The notes: a model not told the origin generated them from the sequence alone. DNA of 51,289 nucleotides from an uncultured Methylococcus sp. (GCA_964344495.1 CAYFNI010000001.1:1-51289), one strand, 5' to 3'. Numbered from the stretch's first letter, positions 2,001-33,237 are shown. Made by a program: numbers and translations.

Positions 2001-2342
2001 CTCTTTCATCGACAGGGCCAGGTGGTGTTGGAGTCAAGCCTCTTGGCGCTGTCCTGCAGCCGTCACGCGCGTCCACTACTCTTGCCATTGACGCCGGGGA
2101 CAAAGCCCTCTCTGCCCAACCGACGCTTGTGAACGTTGGCAGAAATACCGCTGTCTGGACGCACTGGGTGATCCATGCCAAGCCAGCCAACGGCCCTGCC
2201 AGACAGTGCCCCCGGCGTCCTACCCCTGTTTGGCCTGACCGGTTCGCCGAACAACTGCCACCGTCGGCCTCCGCAGAATTTCGATTCGCGAAAACCCCAG
2301 CCTATGGATGATAATTACAGCAACAGGAAGGAGGAGTCGGGG

Positions 2343-3560
2343 ATGCATTCAGAATACGATGTCTTGGTGGTCGGTGGCGGCATGGTGGGCGCGACCCTCG
2401 GGTGTGCCCTGGGAGGCAGCGATTTGCGGGTGGCGGTGCTTGAGGATGCTCCACCGCATGCGTTTTCACCCGAGCAGCCACATGATTTGCGCGTGTCTGC
2501 AGTCAGCGTGGCTTCGGCCAATATCCTCAAGACCGTCGGCGCGTGGGATGGTGTCGCCGCTCGCCGTTTGTGCCCCTATCGGCGCATGCGCGTATGGGAG
2601 GATGGCGGCGATGTCGAATTCCGTAGCGAAGACATCCACGAACCGGTTCTCGGTCATATCGTCGAAAACCGCATCATTCAACTGGCGGCCCTCGAGCGGC
2701 TGACGGATTTTTCCAACGTGACTCTGCTGAGCCCGGTCAAAACCCGCGCCATCCATTATGGGACGTCGGGCTCTGCCGTTGAGCTGGAGGATGGACGCCA
2801 GCTCAAGGCCCCTTTGCTGGTCGCGGCGGATGGCGGTTTCTCGCGGGTTCGACAAGCGGCGGGCATGGGGGTTAGTGGCTGGGATTATGAGCAGCATGCC
2901 CTGGTGTTGACGGTCGAAACCGCGTGTGGCCAGCAGGACATCACTTGGCAACGCTTTACGCCGGAAGGCCCGCAGGCGCTACTGCCGCTGAGTGGGCCGC
3001 ATGCCTCTCTGGTCTGGTACAACACGCCGGAAGAGGTCAAGCGCCTGAAGTCACTGTCCGATGCCGCCTTGCTGGCGGCGTTGACAGAGACGTTCCCGGA
3101 TTGTTTGGGCGAGATCAGGTCGATTCAGTCCCGCGGCAGTTTTCCCTTGCGGCGCCAGCATGCGCTGCGTTACGTCAAGCAGGGGGTGGCCCTGATCGGC
3201 GATGCCGCGCACATGATTCACCCGCTGGCCGGCCAAGGCGTCAACATCGGCTTGCTTGACGCGGCGGCGCTGGCTGAAGTGCTGATCGGCGCGCATCGGC
3301 AGGGGCAGGGTATCGGTGACGCGGCCACGCTGGCCCGCTACGAGCAGATGCGGCGGCGAAATAATCTGGTCATGATGACCGTCATGGATGGCTTTTATCG
3401 GGCGTTCGGTAACAACCACGCGCCGTTGCGGTTGATCCGCAACCTGGGCCTGGGGCTTGCCGAGCGGGTTCAGCCCGCCAAGAAACTGGCGATGAGCTAC
3501 GCCATGGGTCTGAGCGGACCCCTGCCACGGCTGGCGCAAGGGGTAGCGCTGTTGGGATAG
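2343..3560 (+). CDS. UbiH/UbiF/UbiI(VisC)/Coq6-family FAD-dependent ubiquinone-biosynthesis hydroxylase
   Basis: ORF 2175..3560 is trimmed to ATG 2343, which is preceded by AGGAAGGAGGAG (Shine-Dalgarno, about 7 nt spacing). Motifs: DVLVVGGGMVGATLG (GxGxxG), LVAADGGFSRVR and GDAAHMIHPLAGQGVNIGLLDA. Confidence 0.85.
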   Translation: MHSEYDVLVVGGGMVGATLGCALGGSDLRVAVLEDAPPHAFSPEQPHDLRVSAVSVASANILKTVGAWDGVAARRLCPYRRMRVWEDGGDVEFRSEDIHEPVLGHIVENRIIQLAALERLTDFSNVTLLSPVKTRAIHYGTSGSAVELEDGRQLKAPLLVAADGGFSRVRQAAGMGVSGWDYEQHALVLTVETACGQQDITWQRFTPEGPQALLPLSGPHASLVWYNTPEEVKRLKSLSDAALLAALTETFPDCLGEIRSIQSRGSFPLRRQHALRYVKQGVALIGDAAHMIHPLAGQGVNIGLLDAAALAEVLIGAHRQGQGIGDAATLARYEQMRRRNNLVMMTVMDGFYRAFGNNHAPLRLIRNLGLGLAERVQPAKKLAMSYAMGLSGPLPRLAQGVALLG

Positions 3561-20177: not shown

Positions 20178-21158
20178 ATGAACGGAAAAACCGGTTTTAT
20201 GATCCGTACGCTGTTGAGCCTGCTGGTTCTCGCGGCAAGCCTATCGGACGCGACTGCGGCGCGCATGGGGGGCGGCCGTTCGTTTGGCAGCCGTCCCTCC
20301 TACAGCACGCCTTACCAGCGTTCGCCCAGTTCGGTTAATCCGGGCGCCAGCCGCCCGTCTAATCCCGCCCAATCACCGGCGGCCTCACCCGCACAAGCCC
20401 GCAACCAGTCCATCCGCGATTCACTGGCGCAACGGGGTGGTTTGGCCCGATTCCTTGGCGGTCTGGCCCTAGGCGGGCTGCTGGGTGCGCTGTTCTTCGG
20501 CGGTGGCTTCGAGCATCTCAACATCCTCGATCTACTGGTCTTTGGCGGCGTTGCCTTGCTCTTGTTCAAGCTGTTGGCTTCCCGCCGGCCTGCGCCTGAG
20601 CGGGTTGCCACTCAGGCCGGCTATTACGGGGGGCAGGATCGTCAGGAGAACGTCTACGAGAGACACACCTCCGAGCCCGTTTCGAGTGGCTCAGGCTCGG
20701 GTGGCGCCGGCTTCGATACGGACCTGTTGTCACGCAAGACAGGCTTCAACCCCGCTGCCAGCGCTGCAGCCAGCGCCATTCCCGCCGACTTTGATGCGAC
20801 CGGCTTTCTTCAGGGAGCCCGTTCGGCCTATGCGCTGATGCAGGAAGCCTGGGACAAAGCCGACCTGGCTGAGTTGAGAGCGCTGACGACCGACAAGGTG
20901 TTTGGCGAACTGCAGGATCAGATCAGGGCCCGCGGCCTGGCGGAGAACCGGACAGAACTGCTCGAAGTCGAGGCCGAGTTGCTGGAGGTCCGCGATATCG
21001 GGGAAGAGCGGGTCGCCACCGTTCTATTCGATGTGTTGATGCGCGAACAGGCGCATGCAGACCCTGCCCGCGTGCAGGAAGTTTGGCATTTCACCCGTGC
21101 GCGCAACAGTCGTCAGCCCACCTGGTTCCTCGACGGTATCCAGCAGCTCGAAGCCTGA
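20178..21158 (+). CDS. Tim44-like domain protein with signal peptide, Pro/Ser-rich linker and one TM segment
   Basis: 326 aa. It has an N-terminal signal (LLSLLVLAASLSDATAA) and a Gly-rich TM segment (LGGLALGGLLGALFFGGG). The C-terminal FLQGARSAYALMQEAWDKADLAELRALTTDKVF...VWHFTRARNSRQPTWFLDGIQQ matches my memory of bacterial Tim44-like domains. Confidence 0.65.
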   Translation: MNGKTGFMIRTLLSLLVLAASLSDATAARMGGGRSFGSRPSYSTPYQRSPSSVNPGASRPSNPAQSPAASPAQARNQSIRDSLAQRGGLARFLGGLALGGLLGALFFGGGFEHLNILDLLVFGGVALLLFKLLASRRPAPERVATQAGYYGGQDRQENVYERHTSEPVSSGSGSGGAGFDTDLLSRKTGFNPAASAAASAIPADFDATGFLQGARSAYALMQEAWDKADLAELRALTTDKVFGELQDQIRARGLAENRTELLEVEAELLEVRDIGEERVATVLFDVLMREQAHADPARVQEVWHFTRARNSRQPTWFLDGIQQLEA

Positions 21159-22668: not shown

Positions 22669-23616
22669 TTACCGGAGCATCCGTCGGCCTCGCGCCCGCG
22701 AGCGTACTCCCTGTGCAAGCGCAAGCAGAGTCAGCGCCAGCCCGGCCAGCAGGGGACGGGCGTCGGTCAAGGTCGGGCGCATCTCCGACATGGCCATCGA
22801 GGTCATGAATTGCCTGAATTCGTCCGGTGTTTCCAGCCGCTGATAGGTCAGCCCGGTGATGCCTGACAGCCGTTTGAGGTGACCCTCATCAAGCCAGGAT
22901 AGATAGGGCCCTTCAGTGGGCAGCATACGGGTTTCAACCTTCTCCGAATATACCGTCGTCGAGATCGGTGGCTTCTCGATATCTGCGTTTTCCCAGTTGC
23001 CGAGCCTTTGGTTGTCACGGTCATAGCGGGGGACGGCGACAGGTGTGGTTCCACCGACGCCGATCAGCGCTCCACCCACGCTGCCGGATGGACCATCAAA
23101 CTGCGGCTGAATGGATTGTGGCGGTGTCTCCTGACCATCGGTCAGAAACGCTAGCCGCACGTCAGGATCCTGTTTTCGCATCTCACGCAGGGCGTGATAC
23201 AGCCCCATCTCGACATGGCTGTCAGCAGACCAGGCCATGCGCCAGTCGATGTGTTCGAGGACATCGTCAATGACGGAGAAATGACGGCAGATCTCCAGCG
23301 GTTCGAACAGAAAATGCACGGTCTGGGTCGTAAACAGCCCAAGTCCGATTTCGGAACCGCAGGGGAGGTCGTGCAGCACCGCCCGCGTGGCCGCCTTGGC
23401 AAAGCCCAGCCGGTCCTGCGGCCAGCCGGTTTGATGGTAATCCTGCGTGTTCATGCTCTGGGTAATGTCAAACACGACCATGATGCGTGCCACTTGGCGC
23501 GGCAATCGGAGTTCAGGCCGAGCCAGACAGACCCCGATCAATACCGTGGCCAGTCCGAGCAGGAGCAGACGCCAGCGCAATATCAGTGCCGCCCAGACTC
23601 GCCGCAGCCGTCTCAC
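22669..23616 (-). CDS. vWA (MIDAS) domain membrane protein, MxaL/BatB-like
   Basis: 315 aa. The GTG start overlaps the upstream stop (GTGA). There is an N-terminal TM segment. MIDAS-like residues are VVFDITQSMN (DxTxS) and AFLTDGQETP. A C-terminal TM segment is LLAGLALTLLALA. Confidence 0.7.
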   Translation of the reverse strand: MRRLRRVWAALILRWRLLLLGLATVLIGVCLARPELRLPRQVARIMVVFDITQSMNTQDYHQTGWPQDRLGFAKAATRAVLHDLPCGSEIGLGLFTTQTVHFLFEPLEICRHFSVIDDVLEHIDWRMAWSADSHVEMGLYHALREMRKQDPDVRLAFLTDGQETPPQSIQPQFDGPSGSVGGALIGVGGTTPVAVPRYDRDNQRLGNWENADIEKPPISTTVYSEKVETRMLPTEGPYLSWLDEGHLKRLSGITGLTYQRLETPDEFRQFMTSMAMSEMRPTLTDARPLLAGLALTLLALAQGVRSRARGRRMLR

Positions 23617-24164
23617 GGACCCCCTCCGGGGATAGTGGGCAGTGTGGCAAACACGCTGCCCTTGGAGCCTTGGAAGTCATTCTTGGGGCGTTCTTTCGGC
23701 GGGGGCGTGATCCGGTAGGCGTACTCGAGGTGGTAGCGGGCATCCCAGCGGGTCGGATCCAGCGTCAGAGATTGGCGCAGATTGTCCTTGGTTGCATCCA
23801 GCAGGGTATTAACCCGGATATGCTCCAGCAGACCGCGTTCCTTCCAGAGTTTGGCCGCATCCCGCAGATAAAGCGTGCCGAGGTTATAGCGGACGCGTGC
23901 CTGAAAGGCGGCGTCGCCCCGGTTGTGAATCATTCCATACAACCGCAGGGCCTCCAGTGGGTCGCCGGTCTGCTGCAACTGATAAGCCTTGGCATAGATA
24001 AGCAGCGGATCACTGTCTGGCTGAACCTCAATCGACTCAGTGGCGCTCAACAGTTGATTGTGCGTCCTAACCGTCGACCATTCGATCCCGGTTTGCAGCA
24101 ACCCGATCAAGGTGGCCCCCAATAACGGCCACAGGATCCAGGGCGAGAACAGGCGGCGGGTCAT
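23613..24164 (-). CDS. TPR-like membrane-anchored protein, MxaK/BatC-like
   Basis: About 183 aa. ATG 24164 overlaps the upstream stop (ATGA), and ATG 24173 is an alternative. It has an N-terminal TM segment (LFSPWILWPLLGATLIGLL) and helical repeat sequence (YAKAYQLQQTGDPLEALRLYGMI...RYNLGTLYLRDA). Confidence 0.6.
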   Translation of the reverse strand: MTRRLFSPWILWPLLGATLIGLLQTGIEWSTVRTHNQLLSATESIEVQPDSDPLLIYAKAYQLQQTGDPLEALRLYGMIHNRGDAAFQARVRYNLGTLYLRDAAKLWKERGLLEHIRVNTLLDATKDNLRQSLTLDPTRWDARYHLEYAYRITPPPKERPKNDFQGSKGSVFATLPTIPGGGP

Positions 24165-25144
24165 GGATTCCATGCAGTCACCTCCAGTGTTCGGGCCGAC
24201 AGGAGCAGCACCATCAGCACCAGCGCCACTCCATAGAACGGGCCTGACAGATCCTGGCGGGGTAATTTCTCCCGGTACGGCAGCGGCAGGTTTTCCAGTC
24301 GCTCGACCTCGGCAATCGCCTTTTCCATGGCGTTCGGATTTTCCGCCTCGAAGGCACGGTAGGGGACTTCGAGTGATTCGAAATACGCATTGAGGAAGTA
24401 TTCCGGCGTCGTGGTTTCGTTCGGGTTGGCCGGCTTCTCCGCCAGTGGGGCACTGGTGGGATTGCGGAGGTAAATCCAGTAGAGCGTGGTACCGGTTTCC
24501 TGGAAAGTTTGCCGCAAGCGATCGCGAGTCTGCTCATCTATCCGGGCAGCGCCATCGGACACCAGCAGGATGATGCGGGAACCCTGGCGGGGTGTGTCGG
24601 TAAAAAAGTCCAGCGCCATCGCCAGTCCGGGCGCGATGTGGGTGACACCATGGCCGCGACTGCCGGCGGCGGCGATGGCCGCCTGGATCGCGGGTTTGTC
24701 CTCGGTCAGCGGCAGCACATAGATCGGGGCGGCAGCAAAGGCGACCATGCCGAACAGGTCATGCTGGCGCCGCTGAACAAATTCCGACAGCAGCTTCCGG
24801 GCCATGGCGCTTTTCGATTCGGTGGCTTTGGCACCCAGATAACGGCCGGTGAAGTTCTCGTTCATGCTGCTGCTGCGATCCAGTAGCAGGACGATATGCG
24901 CGCCGGTGCCGATTCGATCGACCCATTGTTCACGCTGGTAGGGGCCAGCCATGCCGATGACCAGACTTGCGATGGTGGCACAGGCCACCAGTCGCAATAA
25001 CCAGTCGAGCCGATCCGACAGGGGATCGGCTGGCACCCGCGACAGCGAGGAATACAGCAGCGCCACCTGCCCACGCCGGTACCAGGGCAAGGCAGCCACG
25101 ACGAGCAGGGCCAGTGCCCAGGGTTGCAGCAGTCCGACGCTCAC
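24161..25144 (-). CDS. vWA (MIDAS) domain membrane protein, MxaC/BatA-like
   Basis: 327 aa. The GTG start overlaps the upstream stop (GTGA). There are two N-terminal TM segments. The canonical MIDAS motif is present: VLLLDRSSSMN (DxSxS), GVTHIAPGL and IILLVSDGAA. There is also a C-terminal TM segment. Confidence 0.75.
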   Translation of the reverse strand: MSVGLLQPWALALLVVAALPWYRRGQVALLYSSLSRVPADPLSDRLDWLLRLVACATIASLVIGMAGPYQREQWVDRIGTGAHIVLLLDRSSSMNENFTGRYLGAKATESKSAMARKLLSEFVQRRQHDLFGMVAFAAAPIYVLPLTEDKPAIQAAIAAAGSRGHGVTHIAPGLAMALDFFTDTPRQGSRIILLVSDGAARIDEQTRDRLRQTFQETGTTLYWIYLRNPTSAPLAEKPANPNETTTPEYFLNAYFESLEVPYRAFEAENPNAMEKAIAEVERLENLPLPYREKLPRQDLSGPFYGVALVLMVLLLSARTLEVTAWNP

Positions 25145-26103
25145 AAGGCCTTCCGTTCAGCGGCTGCGCAGGCCTTGCTCAGCGCCAGCAGGTTGAGTGA
25201 CCGCCATGTTTCATTCGAGTCAGCGGAGTCGGGATCGAAGAACAAGGCCTGCGATCCGTCAAAAAAGCGGGCCAGTTCCGGCTGCAGGGGCGCAAATGTC
25301 GCGTGTGTCAGGCAATAACGCTCCAACTGGCTGGCGAACAGGGTTTCGCCGAAGGTCAGATCCAGTGCGCGATGCAACGCGCGAGCGGCCGCCCGGACCG
25401 TGGCTGGATCATTGCTGCCCGCCAGCAGGCGCCGTACCGTGCGCTGAGCTTCGGCAAAGGGCCGCGCCTTGCGGCGACGCAACACATGCCGCAGGCATAA
25501 CAGTGCCACCACGGCGCCGAACGCCGACAGCCATTGCAGGAACCGGCGCTGCAGCGGTGCGGTATCCGCCGGTTTCGGCGGTATGGGGTCCAGCAATTGC
25601 AGTTGTTCATCGCTGATATCGGGCGGTATGACCGGCGAGAGGGTGAACGACCAGCTCGGTGTCTGCAGTGTAACGGGCGGGGAACCGGCAAGATTCAGCG
25701 TCAGCGGGGGCACGCTCATGAGCTCCGGCGCACGTACGCCTTTGAATACCTGATAGGTCAGCTGCAGCTCACCGATGTCGCGTCCGCCGGCCGGCCGGAT
25801 TGCCCAGTGCTGCTCACGCAAGCTGAGCCAGTCGTTGATTGGGCCGGGTTGCGGCAAGGAGGCGGTATCCAGCTGCTGGCCGGGGTGCAGTTCCACCGAG
25901 AGGGTCAGTTCGATCAGATCACCGAGAACATAGCCGTAATCGCGAGCGGCGCTGAGTGTCACCGTAGGTGCGGGTGCGTTCCGCTGGTCCGGCTGACAGG
26001 CGGGAAGGAGCAGGATCAGGCTTGCCAGCCCGAGGTTCTGCAAGGCGCGTGTTGCGCATGAGCACTCAGGCGGCCAGGGCTTTGCTAGCAACTTCATAGA
26101 CAT
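25141..26103 (-). CDS. MxaA-like protein (tentative): lipoprotein-type signal, periplasmic domain, one TM segment and a helical cytoplasmic tail
   Basis: In ORF 25141..26175, ATG 26103 and ATG 26097 overlap the pepN 3' end, and TTG 26043 is also possible. Features: LGLASLILLLPAC (lipobox-like), a TM segment LQWLSAFGAVVALLCLRHVL followed by RRRKARPF, and its position ahead of the vWA genes as in mxaACKL. Confidence 0.5.
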   Translation of the reverse strand: MSMKLLAKPWPPECSCATRALQNLGLASLILLLPACQPDQRNAPAPTVTLSAARDYGYVLGDLIELTLSVELHPGQQLDTASLPQPGPINDWLSLREQHWAIRPAGGRDIGELQLTYQVFKGVRAPELMSVPPLTLNLAGSPPVTLQTPSWSFTLSPVIPPDISDEQLQLLDPIPPKPADTAPLQRRFLQWLSAFGAVVALLCLRHVLRRRKARPFAEAQRTVRRLLAGSNDPATVRAAARALHRALDLTFGETLFASQLERYCLTHATFAPLQPELARFFDGSQALFFDPDSADSNETWRSLNLLALSKACAAAERKAL

Positions 26104-28711
26104 CGGGTGACAGGTCGGGGGTGTGGACCACCCGCTCCAGTTGCGCATGCATGCGCTGCTGGCGGCCTTCGTCATAGTGACGCCAGCCGGTGAGGCCGGT
26201 CAGCATGCGCGCGGCGATTTGCGGATTGATGGCGTTCAGCCGGATGACCTGCTCGGCCAGGAAGCGATAGCCTTCGCCATCTTCGGCGTGAAAATTCACT
26301 GCGTTGGACTGGCTGAAGGCGCCAATCAGCGAGCGGACATGGTTCGGAACGCTCATATCGAAGGCGGGATGTGACAGCAGAGCGTTAACTCGATCGAGGG
26401 CACCGGGTAAGCGGCTGGTGGCCTGCAAGGTAAACCATTTGCCGATGACCAGATCCTCATGTCGCCACTGTTGATAAAACGATTCGAGGCAGGCGTCCTT
26501 GTCCGGGTGGGCACTGTTGACGATGGCGGTCAAGGCAGCGATACGGTCGGTCATCGTCCGGGCTGTGTCGAACTGATGTGAGGCTCGCGCGTGAGAGGTC
26601 GGGTCATCCAGGGTGGACAGGTAATCGAGGCAGAGGTTTTTCAGGCGACGTCGGCCGATGGCGCTGGCGTCGAACTGATTGAATTCGTCCCGATGGTGGC
26701 GTGCATACAGGGATTCAAACTCCGCCCGCAAGGCCCTGGCAATGTCCGTCTTGAGCTGCTGACGGGCCTGATGGACGGCAACCGGCTGATGCACGGTCAG
26801 CGCGGCACCGACATAGTCTTCGGTCGGTAACGTCAGGAGCAACGCCAGATAGGACAGGTCCGAATCAGCGCGTGCCAGCAATGGCTGATAGGCGGCAATC
26901 AGCAATTCCGTGCCGGTCCGGGCGTGAATGTCGTCGACTCGCTCCAGGATCGCGCCGGTGGCCAGTTGTTGACCCGCGTCCCACGCGTTGAAGCTGTCCG
27001 TGTCATGCGCAAACAGAAACGCCAGTTCCTCGCGCGAGCGGGGGAAATCCAGCTTGACCGGCGCTGAAAATCCACGCAAGGCGGAGACGACCGGTGCTTG
27101 CGGCAAGTGGATGAACTCGAAGGATTGCTCAGCTTCTCGCACATCCAGCACACGGGTCAGTCTGGGATGCGGCGCGGGTTCATGACGGAGTTGAAGCGGC
27201 ATTTCGGTGCCGTCAGTTGCCAGCAGGCCCAGCGCCAGAGGAATGTGCATGGGGCGCTTGTGCGGTTGTCCCGGTGTGGGCGGACAGGTCTGTCGAACAG
27301 TCAGACGCAGGGTCGCCCGATCCGGATCGTAATGGCTTTCGAGTGTCAGTTCGGGTGTGCCTGCCTGGCTGTACCAAAGTCTGAACTGGCCGAGATCACT
27401 TGCATTGGCGTCTTCCATGCAGCGCACGAAATCTTCGCAGGTGACGGCTTGCCCGTCATGCCGTTCGAAATAGAGATCAGTCCCCCGCCGAAAACCGTCC
27501 GCGCCCAGGAGGGTGTGCAGCATCCGGATCACTTCAGCACCCTTTTCATATACTGTCAGGGTATAGAAGTTGTTGATTTCGATGTAGGACTCCGGCCGCA
27601 CCGAATGAGCCAGCGGCCCCGCGTCCTCGGCGAATTGGCGCGTCCGCAGGGTGTTAACCTCCTCAATCCGCTTGACGGCGCGGGAGTGTTGGTCGGCTGA
27701 GAACTCCTGGTCCCGAAAGACCGTCAGGCCTTCCTTGAGGCTTAACTGGAACCAGTCCCGGCAGGTGATCCGGTTACCCGTCCAGTTATGGAAATATTCA
27801 TGGGCGATGACGCCTTCGATATGTTCGTAATCGGCGTCGGTCGCCGTATCCGGCCGCGCCAGGACATACTTGGTGTTGAAGATGTTGAGCCCCTTGTTCT
27901 CCATGGCGCCCATATTGAAATGACTGACCGCCACGATCATATAGAGGTCGAGGTCATACTCGCGGCCATAATGGATCTCATCCCAGCGCATGGCCTGCTT
28001 CAGCGAACGCATGGCGTGTCCGCATTTGTCGATATCGTGTGATTCGGCAAAAATCCGCAGGGTCACGTCGCGACCCGATGCAGTGGTGTAGCGGTCCTCG
28101 ATGCACTCGAGGTGGCCTGCCACCAGCGCGAACAGATAGCAGGGTTTACGAAACGGATCGACCCATGTGGCCCAGTGTCGTCCATTCAGCAGATCGCCAC
28201 TGCCTTCCAGATTCCCATTGGCCAGCAGCACCGGATAGCGCGACTTGTCGGCCTGGAGCGTCACCTTGTAGGTGGCCATGATGTCGGGCCGGTCCATGAA
28301 ATAGGTGATCTTCCTGAAGCCCTGGGCTTCGCATTGGGTGCAGAACATGCCGCCCGACAGGTAGAGCCCTTCCAGCGAGGTGTTGGAGGCAGGGTCGATA
28401 TCCGTCACCACTTCCAGTTCGAACGGTCCCGAAGGGATCGACATCAAGGTCAAAGCCTCATCCGAACGGCGGTAGCTTGAGGCATCCATCAGGATGCCAT
28501 TCAACTTCAAGGAGACCAGCTGCAACTGCTCACCCTGCAGCATCAGAGTCCCGGCTTCGCTCCCGGCCTCCGGGTTGGGACGGATGTGCAGGGTACTGGT
28601 GACCCGCGTCCGCTGCTCCTCCAGATCGATCAACAGATTGACATGATCAATCAGGATCGATGGCGATCGGTAATCCTTGAGATGAATGGGTTTGGGCGAA
28701 GGATTGCGCAT
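26066..28711 (-). CDS. pepN: Aminopeptidase N (M1 family)
   Basis: ORF 26066..28750 is trimmed to ATG 28711 (MRNPSPKPIHLKDYRSP, like the E. coli PepN N-terminus). Motifs: GAMEN and HEYFHNWTGNRITCRDWFQLSLKEG (HExxH-X18-E). Confidence 0.9.
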   Translation of the reverse strand: MRNPSPKPIHLKDYRSPSILIDHVNLLIDLEEQRTRVTSTLHIRPNPEAGSEAGTLMLQGEQLQLVSLKLNGILMDASSYRRSDEALTLMSIPSGPFELEVVTDIDPASNTSLEGLYLSGGMFCTQCEAQGFRKITYFMDRPDIMATYKVTLQADKSRYPVLLANGNLEGSGDLLNGRHWATWVDPFRKPCYLFALVAGHLECIEDRYTTASGRDVTLRIFAESHDIDKCGHAMRSLKQAMRWDEIHYGREYDLDLYMIVAVSHFNMGAMENKGLNIFNTKYVLARPDTATDADYEHIEGVIAHEYFHNWTGNRITCRDWFQLSLKEGLTVFRDQEFSADQHSRAVKRIEEVNTLRTRQFAEDAGPLAHSVRPESYIEINNFYTLTVYEKGAEVIRMLHTLLGADGFRRGTDLYFERHDGQAVTCEDFVRCMEDANASDLGQFRLWYSQAGTPELTLESHYDPDRATLRLTVRQTCPPTPGQPHKRPMHIPLALGLLATDGTEMPLQLRHEPAPHPRLTRVLDVREAEQSFEFIHLPQAPVVSALRGFSAPVKLDFPRSREELAFLFAHDTDSFNAWDAGQQLATGAILERVDDIHARTGTELLIAAYQPLLARADSDLSYLALLLTLPTEDYVGAALTVHQPVAVHQARQQLKTDIARALRAEFESLYARHHRDEFNQFDASAIGRRRLKNLCLDYLSTLDDPTSHARASHQFDTARTMTDRIAALTAIVNSAHPDKDACLESFYQQWRHEDLVIGKWFTLQATSRLPGALDRVNALLSHPAFDMSVPNHVRSLIGAFSQSNAVNFHAEDGEGYRFLAEQVIRLNAINPQIAARMLTGLTGWRHYDEGRQQRMHAQLERVVHTPDLSPDVYEVASKALAA

Positions 28712-28969
28712 GGTAGATATTCGATGGCGTTGCAACGCTGCGGCGTTCACTAACTGTATGCGAGCGTCCGGCCCTAAAGCATACCAAGTGCAGCAGATTT
28801 TGGCCGGTTTTGCTCCTGATCAAATCGGGCACGCATCCAGCGCTCTCAGTAAAAAGACTGTCAATCGACTTGACCTGCTTATTGCCCTAAAATTCTAGGA
28901 TTGATTCTTATCTTGGGTCGGGATACGGGCCTTCCCCGTGTCATCGTGCCATCTTCAGTGACATTGCCA

Positions 28970-31900
28970 ATGACGACATCAATGACCAATGCTTCCACCC
29001 TCATTCTGGGCATCCCAGGATTTTCCTATGCCGATCTTTACGACCCGGCCCGTCTGAGTGACCTTGCGGGCTGTTTCGATGCAGAACTCGCGGCGCGCGA
29101 TGAGGCGCTGTTCCAGTCTTTCGAGGCCTATCGCAACTGCCGCGGTGAAGGTATGCAGCCCGAAGCAGTGTCTGAGCTGCTGGTTCGGCTGGCGCCCGAA
29201 CTGGGCCGTTTTGTGGCGCGGCTGTTCGGGGTTGAGCGTGAGCACGACGCACAGGCCGCGCTGATCCGCGCCGATTTCGACACCGTATTCGCGTATAAAT
29301 CCGAGATCGTCGCCAAGTCGGCCAGCCGTTTCAAAGGTGAAGATCCAGCGCACTGGGACATTGGCGAAATACGCCGGCAATTCGACCGCCTGGTCCTGAT
29401 GGCGATTGATGAGGAAGCGCTCAAGGCCGACCGTGAGGCCGCCATTGCCGGGCTTGCCGTCAGGGTCAAGCAGGCGGTTGACTCAGGTGAGTTGGCCGGC
29501 ATTGCCCTGATTCGCGGTCGACTGATGGCGGACGAGCAGGCTTCAAGCCTGTATTCGGGTCTGCTGGCGGGCGATGATGGCGCATTGGCCAACGGCCTGC
29601 ATGATGTGATCGGGCGCTGGACCTTTGCCGCAACCCGCGATCAGGCGTTGAAAGCGGAAGTCAAGGACTGGGTCAGTTTCAAAACGCCGGCTAAAACCGA
29701 TTTTGGGCATCTGGTTCATCATGAACTGCATCCGGTCAATGGCTATCAGGTCTGGAAAGGTCCGCAGGAACATCACCGCCGCCGTGACGGTTTTGGCCTC
29801 ACCGATCCGCGCTTCAGCGAGCGTCGCGTGCTGAACGAGGTTGATCATTGCATCTACTGCCACGACCGCGATACCGATTCGTGCTCGAAAGGCATGCGCA
29901 ACAAGAAGGATGGCACCTACAAGACCAATCCATTGGGCGTCACCATCACCGGTTGCCCGCTGGAAGAAAAGATTTCCGAAATGCACTACGTCAAGCGACA
30001 GGGTGACAACCTGGGTGCCTTGGCGTTGATTACGATCGACAATCCGCTCTGCCCCGGGACCGGTCACCGCATCTGCAACGACTGCATGAAGGGGTGCATC
30101 TACCAAAAGACACAACCGGTCAACATCCCGCAGATCGAGACGAACGTTTTGACCGACGTCCTGTTCATGCCTTGGGGCTTCGAGATTTACAGCCTGCTGA
30201 CGCGCTGGAACCCCCTGAACGTCAAACGGCCGGTGGCTCTGCCCTACAATGGCCGCAATGTGCTTGTGGCCGGGATGGGGCCGGCGGGTTACACCCTCGC
30301 GCACTACCTGCTGAACGAAGGCTTCGGCGTCGTTGGCATCGACGGTCTCAAGATCGAACCGCTCCCGTCACATCTGGTCGGTGATGCCACCCATGCACCC
30401 GAGCCCATCCGTGATTTCCGCGATCTTTACGAGGCGCTCGACCAGCGCATCATGCTGGGATTCGGCGGTGTTGCGGAGTACGGCATCACCGTGCGCTGGG
30501 ACAAAAATTTCCTCAAGGTGATTTATCTCAATCTGTTGCGCCGGCAGAGTTTCCGCATTTACGGCGGCGTGCGTTTTGGTGGCACCCTGACGATCAATGA
30601 GGCCTGGGATCTGGGGTTCGATCACATCGCCATCGCCTCGGGTGCCGGCAAGCCGACCCTGATCGATCTCAAGAACAATCTGATCCGCGGCATTCGCAAG
30701 GCTTCAGATTTCCTGATGGGCCTCCAGCTCACTGGCGCGGCCAAGGAATCCTCACTGGCCAACATGCAGGTGCGCCTGCCGGCCGGTGTGATTGGCGGCG
30801 GTCTGACCGCCATCGATACCTGTACGGAAGTACTGGCCTACTATCCGGTCCAGGTCGAAAAGATTCTCCACCGTTATGAAAATCTGGCCCGCCTCCACGG
30901 CGAGGAAGCCGTGCGCAGAATGTACGATGAAGAGGAGCGCCTGATTCTTGACGAGTTCCTGACCCACGGCCGCGCCATTCAGGCCGAACGGCAACGGGCC
31001 GAGCAGGCGGGCGAAAAACCCCATTTTCTACCCCTGCTGGAAAGCTGGGGCGGCGTCACCCTTTACTACCGCAAAGGCATTGAGGACTCCCCCGCCTATC
31101 GCCAGAATGCCGAGGAAATTACCGAGGCCCTGGACGAAGGGATCCGGCTGGCGCCGGGCATGAGCCCCGTGGCAGCACTGGAGGATGGGTTCGGTCATAT
31201 CCGCGCCGTCGAGTTTGACCGGCTTGAACTGCAGGACGGCCGTTGGACCAAGGTCGAAACGGTCGAGGTTGCGCTGCGCAGCCTGTTCGTCGCTGCCGGC
31301 ACCTCACCCAATACGATCTATGAGTCCGAACATCCGGACAGCTTCGAGATGGACAAGAAGTTCTATCAGCGCTACGAGCCGAACTGGCTGGCGGATGCCG
31401 CTCCAGTGCTGGAACAAGTCAACGACACGACTGAAGTGAAGATCGGCAAACCGGCGCCATTTACATCGTATAGCCGTAACGGCCGATTCATCACGTTCTA
31501 CGGTGACAACCACCCGGTCTATGCCGGCAACGTGGTCAAGGCCATGGCCAGCGCCAAGGATGGGTATCCTTACATTACACGCCTGTACGAGAAGGAACTG
31601 GCGCAGCTCGATCCGGCCGATCAGGCGGCACGCAATCAGGCCCTGCGGCAGTTCCAGGCCCGTCTGGATGACCAGCTGCTGGCCCGCATCGTTGAAATCA
31701 ATCGGGTAACGCCGACCATCATCGAGGTTATCGTTCGCGCGCCGCTGGCGGCCAAACATTTTGCCCCCGGCCAGTTCTATCGGGTGCAGAATTTCGAGGC
31801 GCTGGCGCCGGTGATTGAAGGAACGGTTCTGGTTGCCGAAGGCTTGGCGCTGACCGGTGCCTGGGTCGACAAGGAGCAGGGGCTGATCTCCTTGATCGCT

Positions 31901-32644
31901 TTGGAAATGGGTTCCTCATCCAGATTGCTGTCGCTGTGGCGCCCGGGCGATCCCGTGATCGTGATGGGTGTGACCGGTGCGCCGACCGAGATTCATGCTG
32001 GCCAAACCGTCGCCCTGATTGGTGGCGGGCTGGGCAATGCCGTGTTGTTCTCGATCGGCAAGGCCTTGCGCGCAGCCGGCAGCCAGGTGATCTATTTTGC
32101 CGGATATCGCAAGAACGAGGATGTCTTCAAGGTGCGTGATATCGAGGCGGCATCGGATGTCGTTGTCTGGGCCGTTGATCCCTTGCCCGATGCCAAGCCG
32201 ATACCGGTCCTGCGTCCACAGGACAAAACCTTTGTCGGCAATATCGTTGAGGCTATGGTCGCGTATGCGAAGGGTGAACTCGGCGATACCCCCATTCACC
32301 TGGATGATGTCGATCACATGGTCGTGATCGGTTCCGATCGCATGATGGCAGCGGTCAAGGCTGCGCGCTTCGGTATTCTCAAGCCCTACATCAAGCCTCA
32401 CCACTCGGCGATCGGGTCGATCAATTCGCCCATGCAGTGCATGATGAAAGGGGTCTGTGCACAGTGCTTGTGCAAGCATGTCGACCCCGAGAGTGGGCAG
32501 GAATACTTCGTCTATTCCTGTTACAACCAGGATCAGGATCTCGACCGCGTCGATTTCCCGAATCTCCAGGCCCGACTCCGGCAGAATTCCGTGCAGGAAA
32601 AACTCTCAAGTCGCTGGCTTGAGCATCTGGTCTCAAGGCGCTGA
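28970..32644 (+). CDS. Large fused flavo-iron-sulfur oxidoreductase: an unassigned N-terminal domain, then a GltD/NfnB/SudA-like module (2x[4Fe-4S], FAD, NAD(P)H), then a PyrK/NfnA/SudB-like module (FAD/NAD(P), [2Fe-2S])
   Basis: ORF 28901..32644 (TTG start) is trimmed to ATG 28970, giving 1224 aa. The Cys clusters are CIYCHDRDTDSC...GCP...LCPGTGHRICNDCMKGC (about 29849-30097). The Rossmann motifs are VLVAGMGPAGYTLA (about 30260) and GVIGGGLTAIDT (about 30785). There is a GltD-type tail, FVAAGTSPN...GDNHPVYAGNVVKAMASAKDG. The PyrK-like part starts near 31680 (ARIVEINRVTPTIIEVIVRAPL, ALIGGGLGNAVL). The 2Fe-2S motif is CMMKGVCAQCLC (32438-32473), with a later Cys at 32519. Confidence 0.7.
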   Translation: MTTSMTNASTLILGIPGFSYADLYDPARLSDLAGCFDAELAARDEALFQSFEAYRNCRGEGMQPEAVSELLVRLAPELGRFVARLFGVEREHDAQAALIRADFDTVFAYKSEIVAKSASRFKGEDPAHWDIGEIRRQFDRLVLMAIDEEALKADREAAIAGLAVRVKQAVDSGELAGIALIRGRLMADEQASSLYSGLLAGDDGALANGLHDVIGRWTFAATRDQALKAEVKDWVSFKTPAKTDFGHLVHHELHPVNGYQVWKGPQEHHRRRDGFGLTDPRFSERRVLNEVDHCIYCHDRDTDSCSKGMRNKKDGTYKTNPLGVTITGCPLEEKISEMHYVKRQGDNLGALALITIDNPLCPGTGHRICNDCMKGCIYQKTQPVNIPQIETNVLTDVLFMPWGFEIYSLLTRWNPLNVKRPVALPYNGRNVLVAGMGPAGYTLAHYLLNEGFGVVGIDGLKIEPLPSHLVGDATHAPEPIRDFRDLYEALDQRIMLGFGGVAEYGITVRWDKNFLKVIYLNLLRRQSFRIYGGVRFGGTLTINEAWDLGFDHIAIASGAGKPTLIDLKNNLIRGIRKASDFLMGLQLTGAAKESSLANMQVRLPAGVIGGGLTAIDTCTEVLAYYPVQVEKILHRYENLARLHGEEAVRRMYDEEERLILDEFLTHGRAIQAERQRAEQAGEKPHFLPLLESWGGVTLYYRKGIEDSPAYRQNAEEITEALDEGIRLAPGMSPVAALEDGFGHIRAVEFDRLELQDGRWTKVETVEVALRSLFVAAGTSPNTIYESEHPDSFEMDKKFYQRYEPNWLADAAPVLEQVNDTTEVKIGKPAPFTSYSRNGRFITFYGDNHPVYAGNVVKAMASAKDGYPYITRLYEKELAQLDPADQAARNQALRQFQARLDDQLLARIVEINRVTPTIIEVIVRAPLAAKHFAPGQFYRVQNFEALAPVIEGTVLVAEGLALTGAWVDKEQGLISLIALEMGSSSRLLSLWRPGDPVIVMGVTGAPTEIHAGQTVALIGGGLGNAVLFSIGKALRAAGSQVIYFAGYRKNEDVFKVRDIEAASDVVVWAVDPLPDAKPIPVLRPQDKTFVGNIVEAMVAYAKGELGDTPIHLDDVDHMVVIGSDRMMAAVKAARFGILKPYIKPHHSAIGSINSPMQCMMKGVCAQCLCKHVDPESGQEYFVYSCYNQDQDLDRVDFPNLQARLRQNSVQEKLSSRWLEHLVSRR

Positions 32645-32740: not shown

Positions 32741-32769
32741 ATGACAAGCCCGGAGAAGTCTTTTACTAT
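32741..32769 (+). promoter_or_regulatory. Sigma70-like promoter candidate for the small secreted protein gene
   Basis: ATGACA (32741-32746), a 17-nt spacer, then TACTAT (32764-32769), in an AT-richer intergenic region about 100 nt upstream of ATG 32869. This is a sequence match only. Confidence 0.3.
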
Positions 32770-32868
32770 TCAATTTGTTGTTGCCGGCCATGAAGACCGT
32801 GTCAGCAACTGGGATATTCGCCAACTGATTGGTTGCCTTTAAGGGCTGCCAGAGGAGACACAACAAAC

Positions 32869-33237
32869 ATGAAAATGAGCAAGATTTCTACCGTAGTTAG
32901 CAGCGCACTTCTGGCCCTGGCTGTTTCTGGCAATGTATTCGCTGCCGAAAACGCTGCAGGTGTTAAAGAGCATTTTGGTCTGACCGTTCAGAAGGCCAAG
33001 GAAGCTCAGGCTTCTGCTGCTGCCGGTAACAAGGAAGAGTGCCTTGTGAACATCAAGGCTGCCAAGCAGCACTACAAAGAAGTCACCGGCGATGCCGCTG
33101 GCAAGCCCCTGCAGGACGCTATCAAGGTTCTGAAAGTCGGTCAGGAAGAGTGCGAACAGGGCAATACTGCCAAGGCAGCTGCCACGCTGACCGAAGTTGT
33201 CAATGCCCTCGAAAAGATCAACGCGAACATCAAGTAA
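32869..33237 (+). CDS. Small secreted all-helical protein (SmbP-like in style, identity unverified)
   Basis: ORF 32833..33237 is trimmed to ATG 32869 (GAGGAG upstream), giving 122 aa. The signal peptide is MKMSKISTVVSSALLALAVSGNVFA|AE. The mature part is Ala/Lys/Glu-rich with two (K/Q)EEC motifs. Codon usage shifts to GCT/GTT/TCT/GGT codons. A strong terminator follows. Confidence 0.75.
   Translation: MKMSKISTVVSSALLALAVSGNVFAAENAAGVKEHFGLTVQKAKEAQASAAAGNKEECLVNIKAAKQHYKEVTGDAAGKPLQDAIKVLKVGQEECEQGNTAKAAATLTEVVNALEKINANIK

Follow-up and report, generated by a model that had tools for sequence, protein, structure and literature searches.

A single-chain NfnB-to-NfnA-like protein with an N-terminal RP005_N domain in an uncultured Methylococcus

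The window analysed here is a stretch of 51,289 nucleotides from an uncultured Methylococcus sp. (GCA_964344495.1 CAYFNI010000001.1:1-51289), and our subject is a gene on its plus strand (positions 28970-32644) whose product, judged from its sequence, is a five-part redox protein. A preliminary description of the DNA had proposed an open reading frame of 1224 amino acids at this position, in which a NfnB/SudA-like module is fused ahead of a NfnA/SudB/PyrK-like one (i.e. in B-to-A order). The reading frame is indeed present, and matches in Pfam, NCBIfam and the PDB together with fold comparison bear out the five parts, both modules and their order. From the N-terminus these are a helical domain, a two-[4Fe-4S] domain, Rossmann domains for flavin adenine dinucleotide (FAD) and reduced nicotinamide adenine dinucleotide phosphate (NADPH), an FNR/PyrK-like module for FAD and nicotinamide adenine dinucleotide (NAD), and a C-terminal [2Fe-2S] segment (Table 1). 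Domain parsing, named beforehand as a check, recovered both modules and the cluster ligands, and the positions given for the parts were accurate: 29849-30097 runs from C294 to C376, ~31680 falls at residue 904/905, and 32438-32521 runs from C1157 to C1184.

Table 1. Coordinates of the fusion gene and of the parts of its product.
Feature	Residues	Positions	Strand	Basis
Complete gene		28970..32644	+	ATG 28970, stop 32642-32644; 1224 codons + stop
RP005_N domain (Pfam PF27156)	1-268	28970..29773	+	Precomputed PF27156 match on the window protein
RRRDGFxLTD motif	270-279	29777..29806	+	24-sequence family alignment
Two-[4Fe-4S] domain	293-420	29846..30229	+	Pfam, Nfn alignment, family alignment
NfnB/GltD-like FAD and NADPH domains	421-866	30230..31567	+	Pfam, Nfn alignment, fold match
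Family-specific insertion, ~70 residues	620-693	30827..31048	+	Predicted helical hairpin
Helical linker between B-like and A-like modules	867-904	31568..31681	+	Alignment, model
NfnA/SudB/PyrK-like FAD barrel and NAD(H) Rossmann domain	905-1145	31682..32404	+	Profile, PDB, fold match
[2Fe-2S] segment and C-terminal helix	1146-1224	32405..32641	+	Family alignment

Two Nfn-like modules and their putative cofactor sites

Both catalytic halves of the protein are closest to NfnB and NfnA, in sequence and in predicted fold. Pfam places Pyr_redox_2 at residues 430-649 and Fer4_20, slightly under its cutoff, at 326-393. A search of PDB sequences with the full protein matched the NfnI small subunit at residues 904-1067 (E = 6.8e-16) and the NfnI large subunit at 487-622 (E = 5e-12). 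With the C-terminal module as query the NfnI small subunit was matched at E = 3.6e-17, and T. maritima NfnA was matched also; the matches of the middle part, to Xfn, the NfnI large subunit and NfnB, fall into three colinear blocks. After PRK06567 the best model for the B-like half is TIGR01316 (the NfnB/SudA type; 84 bits), the true GltD model TIGR01317 giving 27 bits, and that for the A-like half is PRK06222 (the SudB/NfnA type; 75 bits), with PyrK at 61 bits.

A model of residues 1-1200 was built with AlphaFold2 from 24 aligned sequences. It is a confidently packed, compact multi-domain body (mean predicted local distance difference test (pLDDT) 83.9, predicted template modelling score (pTM) 0.84). 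Comparison of the model with the PDB by Foldseek gave template modelling scores (TMt) of 0.78-0.80 for Xfn and the NfnI large subunit, 0.79 for the NfnI small subunit, 0.75-0.78 for T. maritima NfnB and NfnA, 0.73 for GltD and 0.78-0.80 for PyrK. The pLDDT falls below 50 in only four segments (273-279 (RRRDGF), 501-509, 778-783 and 1154-1164), all of which are conserved motifs. Three of them are known cofactor-binding regions, i.e. the b-FAD loop (501-509), GTSPN (778-783) and the [2Fe-2S] loop (1154-1164), modelled here without the cofactors.

Conservation was assessed in two family alignments of 15 and 24 sequences, with 38-86% identity to the window protein, and the hallmark motifs of Nfn used for comparison are those of a review (PMC6405883). 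Conservation is highest in the two-[4Fe-4S] domain (91% identity within Methylococcales, 66% to distant members). Its motifs are C294-x2-C297-x7-C305-x23-C329-P and TGHRIC369-ND-C372-x3-C376, whose seven Cys are invariant across the family alignment, as is E390, which is aligned to the Glu of Gx2ER in Nfn. A further Cys, C361, gives way to Ile or Leu in two lineages (P0274 and P0308), and lies opposite Leu in the alignment to Nfn. The ligands of the two clusters are therefore probably the seven Cys and Glu390, as in Nfn. The region had been described as holding eight Cys and two [4Fe-4S] clusters; by motif both the region and the clusters stand, but only seven of the Cys are invariant and the eighth ligand is probably the Glu. 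The spacing is not the canonical one of Nfn, RCx2Cx4Cx3CPV and GRVCPQExQCx3C (PMC6405883); the window protein has Cx2Cx7Cx23CP and HRICNDCx3C, the first of these containing a conserved, family-specific insertion or loop of 23 residues. H298, D303, E333, S336 and E337 are also invariant around the clusters.

The NfnB-type character of the following domains is seen in the combination of Pyr_redox_2 with Fer4_20, in HMMER alignments made to 5JCA_L, 5VJ7_A and 4YLF_B, and in the Foldseek comparison (TMt 0.77-0.80). The motifs comprise GxGPAG (435-440), GGGLT (609-613), AAGTSPN (774-781) and GD(N)HP (845-849). The sequence GFGGVxEYGITxR509WDKNFL is nearly invariant in the family alignments. R509, present in 24 of the 24 sequences, is aligned to Arg187 of T. 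maritima NfnB (GGVxxYGIxxR), the residue that contacts N5 of the b-FAD and that is conserved in all Nfn homologues (PMC6405883). At the putative site for the 2'-phosphate of NADPH, Y700-R701-K702 lies opposite YRR of Nfn; R701 is invariant, and position 702 is either Lys or Arg. The family-specific insertion (Table 1) is located between strands 1 and 2 of the NADPH Rossmann domain, and is missing from the alignments to NfnB and the NfnI large subunit.

In the A-like module the window protein and its nearer relatives have the motifs PGQFYRVQN, E957-GLAL-T962, MGxTG (999-1003), G1018-GGLGNA-1024 and GYRKNED. The counterpart of E957-GLAL-T962 in Nfn is ERxPxT, of which the Arg and Pro are missing here, and that of GYRKNED is GFRTKD of NfnA; the fold scores 0.75-0.79 (TMt). 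All the Methylococcales, Acidobacteriota and 'Delta' members examined, like the window protein itself, have intact FAD and NAD motifs, which within Methylococcales are 79-82% conserved.

The [2Fe-2S] pattern at the C-terminus rests on four invariant Cys, as had been suggested, namely C1157, C1163, C1166 and C1184 (Q-C-x5-C-x2-C-x17-C); C1168, part of the 'CLC' in the preliminary description, is not conserved. The stretch QC1157MMKGVC1163AQC1166...C1184 has no Asp at the position occupied in Nfn, so that by sequence this site is of the all-Cys, PyrK-like kind and not the Asp(Cys)3 of Nfn.

The N-terminal domain had been left unassigned. It is a match to the Pfam domain RP005_N, whose name comes from RP005, an uncharacterised protein of Rickettsia prowazekii, and it has a homologous counterpart at the N-terminus of the Rickettsiales PRK06567 proteins. 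When the domain is modelled alone (pLDDT 85), residues 20-230 form an all-helical bundle and, after it, residues 252-263 a small beta hairpin. Foldseek gave no significant match to it in the PDB (best E 0.82, TM <= 0.2), a search of NCBIfam with the domain alone gave just a weak match, to the N-terminus of PRK06567 (E 0.005), and residues 1-300 as query returned only fragments of the same family, labelled PF27156. A search of 1.84 billion proteins, clustered at 50% identity, with its profile found 1953 representatives, of which 1245 have E <= 1e-10. The domain is N-terminal in every one of the 1953, and complete proteins have 1001-1250 residues, so it is confined to this architecture. Conservation is lowest in RP005_N, where identity falls to 49% within Methylococcales and, for distant members, to 28%. 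The conserved residues are D22, L32, F36, S68, F81, F86, L248 and V249. None of the His, Cys or Met residues of the domain is conserved in the family alignment, there is no conserved His in residues 1-292, and no invariant His, Cys, Met or Tyr within 1-268. The low conservation and the lack of such residues speak against catalysis or the binding of a metal or haem here, and for a role in structure, shielding or docking.

The RRRDGFxLTD motif joins the N-terminal to the Fe-S domain, directly ahead of the first Cys. R272, G274, F275 and L277 are invariant in the 24 sequences, and the remaining positions are 83-92% conserved. Neither the model of the isolated domain nor the full-length one gives the motif a pLDDT of 50 or more. 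As the other three segments of low pLDDT contact cofactors, we infer that in the folded protein the RRRDGF loop may likewise contact a cofactor or a partner.

The family and its genomic setting

The window copy is an ordinary member of its family, with a nearest relative 86% identical in sequence. All 8000 of the 8000 scored candidates in a homologue search had E <= 1e-10, and the best 120 of them are relatives with 68-90% identity, full-length except for three that are truncated; it follows that 28970-32644 is not a chance reading frame. The named relatives among these 120 are almost all Methylococcales. Identity to the window protein is 79% in Methylomagnum, 77-78% in Methylocaldum, 72% in Methylococcus capsulatus (the orthologue in strain Bath being AAU90388.1 / Q60BX8) and 68% in Methylomonas. 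In a scan of one genome per species there were at least 592 confirmed matches to RP005_N. The best 80 of these come mostly from Methylococcales, and also from Chromatiales, Lysobacterales, a betaproteobacterium and Gemmatimonadota; further named members belong to Pyrinomonadaceae (Acidobacteriota), Myxococcota, "Deltaproteobacteria", Thiobacillus and Alphaproteobacteria. The family is common in aerobic methanotrophs and Rickettsiales, and apparently present in all the Methylococcales examined. An RP005-family protein is kept in nearly every reduced Rickettsiales genome (PMC3641634).

Some of the entries require comment. A protein assigned to 'Candidatus Desulforudis' (P0057) is 74% identical to the window protein, and its contig is probably mis-binned. 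Several 'short' RP005_N proteins on very long contigs are apparent frameshifted fragments; in P0131 the frameshift is seen directly, as the tail of the alignment is nonsense past the first Cys motif, and P0136 and P0143 are assumed to be alike.

The gene had been said to stand alone, divergent from pepN (26066-28750, minus strand), in a context that is uninformative, and this agrees with a wider comparison. Open reading frames were clustered from 80 genomic loci together with the window (81 loci), and no conserved neighbour was found, the best cluster being present at 16 of the 81 loci and corresponding to dcw-cluster, ABC-F and YchJ synteny in Methylobacter and Methylomonas. No transporter or pathway genes co-occur consistently among the loci compared. 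The more distant contexts (an ABC-transporter/ferredoxin locus in Thiobacillus and a gatCAB-linked locus) have nothing in common. Such an absence of conserved neighbours fits a self-sufficient enzyme using common carriers.

In the Thiobacillus locus (L081:1173-4455), from a metagenome-assembled genome, the homologue lies downstream of a gene for an FAD_binding_2 flavoprotein, two small ferredoxin genes and an ABC transporter, and this is the sole context seen with ferredoxins close by. In the P0276 lineage (L082:8001-11474; also L083 and L084) the gene of a distant homologue begins 4 nucleotides past gatB of a gatCAB operon, and is followed by genes for LemA, an M48 peptidase and ferrochelatase. 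The ankyrin-repeat genes close to it hint that the bacterium may be host-associated. In this lineage the PyrK-like half has a degenerate NAD-binding motif.

The start of the window gene was placed by gene callers at Met5 (28982), giving a product of 1220 amino acids in place of the 1224 from ATG 28970; the open reading frame as listed (28901-32644, plus strand) begins at an upstream TTG, and 28970 is its first ATG. No clear ribosome-binding site distinguishes ATG 28970 from ATG 28982. A scan for promoters and terminators gave scores no better than shuffled sequence, and Rfam and tRNA scans of the window found no RNA genes. The DNA of the window is ordinary chromosomal sequence from a methanotroph resembling Methylococcaceae, with genes for an acetolactate-synthase-type thiamine pyrophosphate enzyme, ketol-acid reductoisomerase and a ThiF-family protein, and leuA, alr, dnaB, hldE, pepN and gshA.

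A few other features of the window may be recorded. Directly downstream of the fusion gene, at a distance of 189 nucleotides, is a gene for a small metal-binding protein (32833-33237, plus strand; Pfam SMBP, at cutoff). It has its own promoter-like site (32741-32769) and is syntenic at just 5 of the 81 loci, which makes a relation to the fusion enzyme improbable; a protein of this kind beside a redox enzyme in a methanotroph may nonetheless merit attention. Positions 1-2000, at the end of the contig, have 47.5% G+C, compared with ~60% elsewhere in the window, and are apparently non-coding (the longest open reading frame has 92 codons and none is convincing; there is no Rfam or tRNA match). At 2175-3560 (plus strand) is a 461-residue FAD-dependent monooxygenase, with a match to Pfam FAD_binding_3 and a partial one to squalene epoxidase, whose motifs look like those of a UbiH/Coq6-type hydroxylase. 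A 326-residue protein encoded at 20178-21158 (plus strand) has a Tim44-like domain at its C-terminus. Two proteins with von Willebrand factor A domains and a 343-residue protein with no match in Pfam are encoded by consecutive genes at 22669-26175, on the minus strand like the adjoining pepN. We take this row to resemble operons of the BatA/BatB type.

Relation to known enzymes and possible function

The window protein has several features in common with NfnAB. The two modules and their folds are the same (TM 0.75-0.80), the arginine at N5 of the b-FAD has its equivalent in R509, and the putative NADPH site has corresponding basic residues (R701, K702). By alignment there are two [4Fe-4S] clusters with seven Cys and a Glu, a [2Fe-2S] cluster would lie between the two flavins and, in the methanotroph lineage, a putative NfnA-like FAD/NAD(H) module is present. 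The differences are that the window protein has both modules on one chain, B before A, and an additional RP005_N domain of 270 residues, that it contains the insertion of ~70 residues in the NADPH domain and others (786-830 and 944-955), that the spacing of its Fe-S Cys is altered and its [2Fe-2S] site is Cys4, and that its hosts are aerobes. The contrast drawn in the preliminary description with NfnAB and SudAB, whose modules are separate subunits, holds insofar as the modules are fused here; fused homologues, including B-to-A ones, had however already been reported (PMC6405883).

In that survey Nfn homologues were sorted into four patterns (Liang et al. 2019, PMC6405883), of which Pattern C is an uncharacterised B-to-A fusion, ~200 residues longer than the A-B fusions, found in Actinobacteria, Alphaproteobacteria and Gammaproteobacteria. 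Almost all known hosts of Nfn are anaerobes, a single aerobe with a homologue being named, and the supplement has no methanotroph or Rickettsia entries (PMC6405883). The window protein shares with Pattern C the B-to-A order on one chain, and Proteobacteria among the hosts. Pattern C (the Mobiluncus curtisii type), whose proteins we estimate at ~950 residues, is presumably the same as NCBIfam PRK12779; on this model (NF009415) the window protein scores 98 bits where the cutoff is 1519, and if the identification is correct it thus represents a different fused lineage.

The Rickettsiales RP005/PRK06567 proteins (NF005128; 'GltD-UbiB chimera', e.g. ECH_0778) are colinear with the window protein throughout, including the N-terminal domain. 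The window protein belongs to a methanotroph/gammaproteobacterial branch and is ~190 residues longer than the 1031-position model. It scores 626 bits against an equivalog cutoff of 1072, and is therefore a homologue of the Rickettsiales proteins but not an equivalog. Distant members of the family are colinear with PRK06567 from position ~6-16 to beyond 900, with scores of 539-652 bits. GltD and the N-terminal half of dihydropyrimidine dehydrogenase belong to the same fold family as residues 293-866, with the same layout of two clusters, FAD and NADPH (TM 0.73 to A. brasilense GltD). The window protein differs from GltD in having no catalytic partner subunit or domain, a very low score on GltD models and a PyrK-like module fused to it. 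PyrK has in common with it the FNR-like FAD/NAD module and an all-Cys [2Fe-2S] site at the C-terminus (TM 0.78-0.80). In this case the differences are the lack of a PyrD partner or of pyrD nearby, a score of 56-61 bits on NF000799 (cutoff 314), and a first [2Fe-2S] Cys that is one residue further away (C-x5-C-x2-C).

We found no functional study of RP005-family proteins (including Q60BX8/AAU90388, RP005, ECH_0778, APH_0545, NSE_0661 and PRK06567) in the literature searched, and a search on Nfn together with methanotroph genera returned none either, so the proposal that this is a candidate uncharacterised redox enzyme is upheld. In our view there is about an even chance that the methanotroph protein has a ferredoxin-coupled, NADPH-linked function like that of Nfn, with RP005_N as a cap or docking domain. 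The enzyme would be cytoplasmic and self-contained, with the full cofactor chain of NfnAB on one B-to-A polypeptide. NADPH would bind to the central Rossmann domain and reduce the b-FAD, from which electrons could follow two paths. One would lead through the two [4Fe-4S] clusters (293-420) to a ferredoxin or flavodoxin docked near the distal cluster, and the other through the C-terminal [2Fe-2S] cluster to the second FAD and the NAD(H) site, so that NADPH, NAD(H) and a low-potential carrier would be coupled as in Nfn. In an aerobe such an enzyme could provide reduced ferredoxin from NADPH without use of the membrane. RP005_N would sit over the Fe-S domain as a structural cap or for docking, and the RRRDGFxLTD loop would touch a cofactor or partner.

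A more far-reaching version, that the RP005 family is a single-chain, oxygen-tolerant, flavin-based bifurcating enzyme of obligate aerobes (methanotrophs, Rickettsiales, Acidobacteriota and Myxococcota), we consider unlikely. Here NADPH would be the donor, NAD+ the high-potential co-acceptor and reduced ferredoxin the product, with RP005_N shielding or gating the distal cluster.

Several observations count against an Nfn-like mechanism. In six of the eleven distant full-length representatives the GGGxGxA and E..T motifs of the A-like module are degenerate, while the NADPH half and the [2Fe-2S] Cys are invariant, and Wolbachia copies have been reported to be without the NAD domain (PMC1366493). 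Taken together these place the NAD(H) site, although the alignments show it conserved in the methanotroph lineage, outside the invariant core of the family. The unusually high potential of the [2Fe-2S] cluster of Nfn (+80 mV) is tied to its Asp(Cys)3 ligation (PMC6405883), so that with Cys4 in its place the high-potential branch would differ from that of Nfn. In addition the spacing of both [4Fe-4S] motifs departs from Nfn, no ferredoxin gene is consistently nearby among the loci compared, and the hosts of the family, Rickettsiales included, are mostly aerobes. The case for bifurcation in particular is weakened by the Cys4 ligation, the changes in the cluster motifs, the aerobic life of the hosts and an NAD site that is dispensable elsewhere in the family.

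Some of this would suit the main alternative, a plain, non-bifurcating reductase passing electrons from NADPH to ferredoxin, flavodoxin or another protein for housekeeping purposes (Fe-S assembly or ferredoxin-dependent biosynthesis), which we regard as possible although somewhat improbable. Its invariant core would be NADPH to b-FAD to Fe-S, the PyrK-like half being kept mainly for the [2Fe-2S] cluster or for structure. This accords with the invariance of the NADPH/b-FAD/[4Fe-4S] half and of the four [2Fe-2S] Cys alongside a degenerate A-like nucleotide motif in the six distant representatives, with the Wolbachia report (PMC1366493) and with a Cys4 cluster unlike that of bifurcating Nfn. Moreover, the retention of the protein by Rickettsiales (PMC3641634) and the position of the gene among housekeeping genes suggest a basic cellular role. 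Yet the intact and well-conserved A-like FAD and NAD motifs of the Methylococcales indicate that the NAD site is under selection in the methanotroph lineage, and the N5 arginine typical of Nfn is invariant. Electrons might alternatively be delivered to a small molecule, at an active site formed by RP005_N, the RRRDGFxLTD loop and the distal [4Fe-4S] cluster of an NADPH-dependent reductase. GltD-like modules feed a second site in dihydropyrimidine dehydrogenase and glutamate synthase, or reduce polysulfide in SudAB, and by analogy the conserved loop, with its low pLDDT like that of the cofactor loops, the 23-residue insertion in the first cluster motif, the invariant H298, D303, E333, S336 and E337, and the restriction of RP005_N to this architecture could all be understood. 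But RP005_N is less conserved than any other part of the protein (28% to distant members), it lacks a conserved His, Cys, Met or acidic cluster of the sort that marks an active site, it has no relative among enzyme folds (best Foldseek E 0.8), and the gene has no consistent transporter or pathway neighbours; we think such a reductase quite improbable.

The functions that have been attached to the family by annotation are essentially excluded. The sole points in favour of a glutamate synthase beta subunit or a 2-polyprenylphenol hydroxylase are the product names of PRK06567 and JGI and the use made of them in PMC4251998, where the protein was read, on the basis of annotation, as a converter of glutamine to glutamate. 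The GltD models TIGR01317 and TIGR01318 give 22-27 bits for a cutoff of 448, neither the protein nor its neighbours in the window include a GltB-like amidotransferase or synthase domain, and E. chaffeensis carries a homologue yet has no glutamate synthase (PMC4251998). With such scores and no GltB partner the synthase subunit was rejected, as was a UbiB hydroxylase, the 'hydroxylase' half being an electron-transfer module of the FNR/PyrK type; this pair of readings is scarcely credible. Almost as remote is the detoxification of nitric oxide or peroxide by a flavohemoglobin-like protein with haem in the N-terminal helical domain. ECH_0778, APH_0545 and NSE_0661 were speculated to be of this kind in a genome paper of 2006 (PMC1366493), RP005_N is all-helical, the family occurs in aerobes, and myoglobin and allophycocyanin are among the non-significant Foldseek matches. 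However, the globin matches have E 3.4-6.2 and TM 0.1-0.2, residues 1-268 contain no invariant His, Cys, Met or Tyr, and the R. prowazekii protein is without the proposed haem ligands (PMC1366493). This possibility was rejected for want of a conserved His in residues 1-292 and of a match to the globin fold.

We return to the ferredoxin-coupled, NADPH-linked function. Enzymes of the Nfn type are the simplest model for flavin-based electron bifurcation, and are regarded as a feature of anaerobes. Since the family, its N-terminal domain and B-to-A fusions are already catalogued, and the window copy is typical, the novelty is less than the preliminary description implied; the window protein belongs to a known kind, as a variant that is catalogued but uncharacterised. 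Its interest lies in what appears to be the whole cofactor chain of Nfn on one polypeptide, in a widespread and highly conserved enzyme of aerobes with ~1200 residues. Were it merely a diaphorase-like reductase, it would be one more uncharacterised oxidoreductase. If electrons do pass from NADPH to ferredoxin, this would explain how these aerobes provide low-potential electrons for such users as nitrogenase or ferredoxin-dependent biosynthesis, and would give a compact part for the engineering of methanotrophs and a possible target in Rickettsiales. If the enzyme bifurcates, Nfn-type bifurcation would extend from anaerobes to aerobic and intracellular bacteria.

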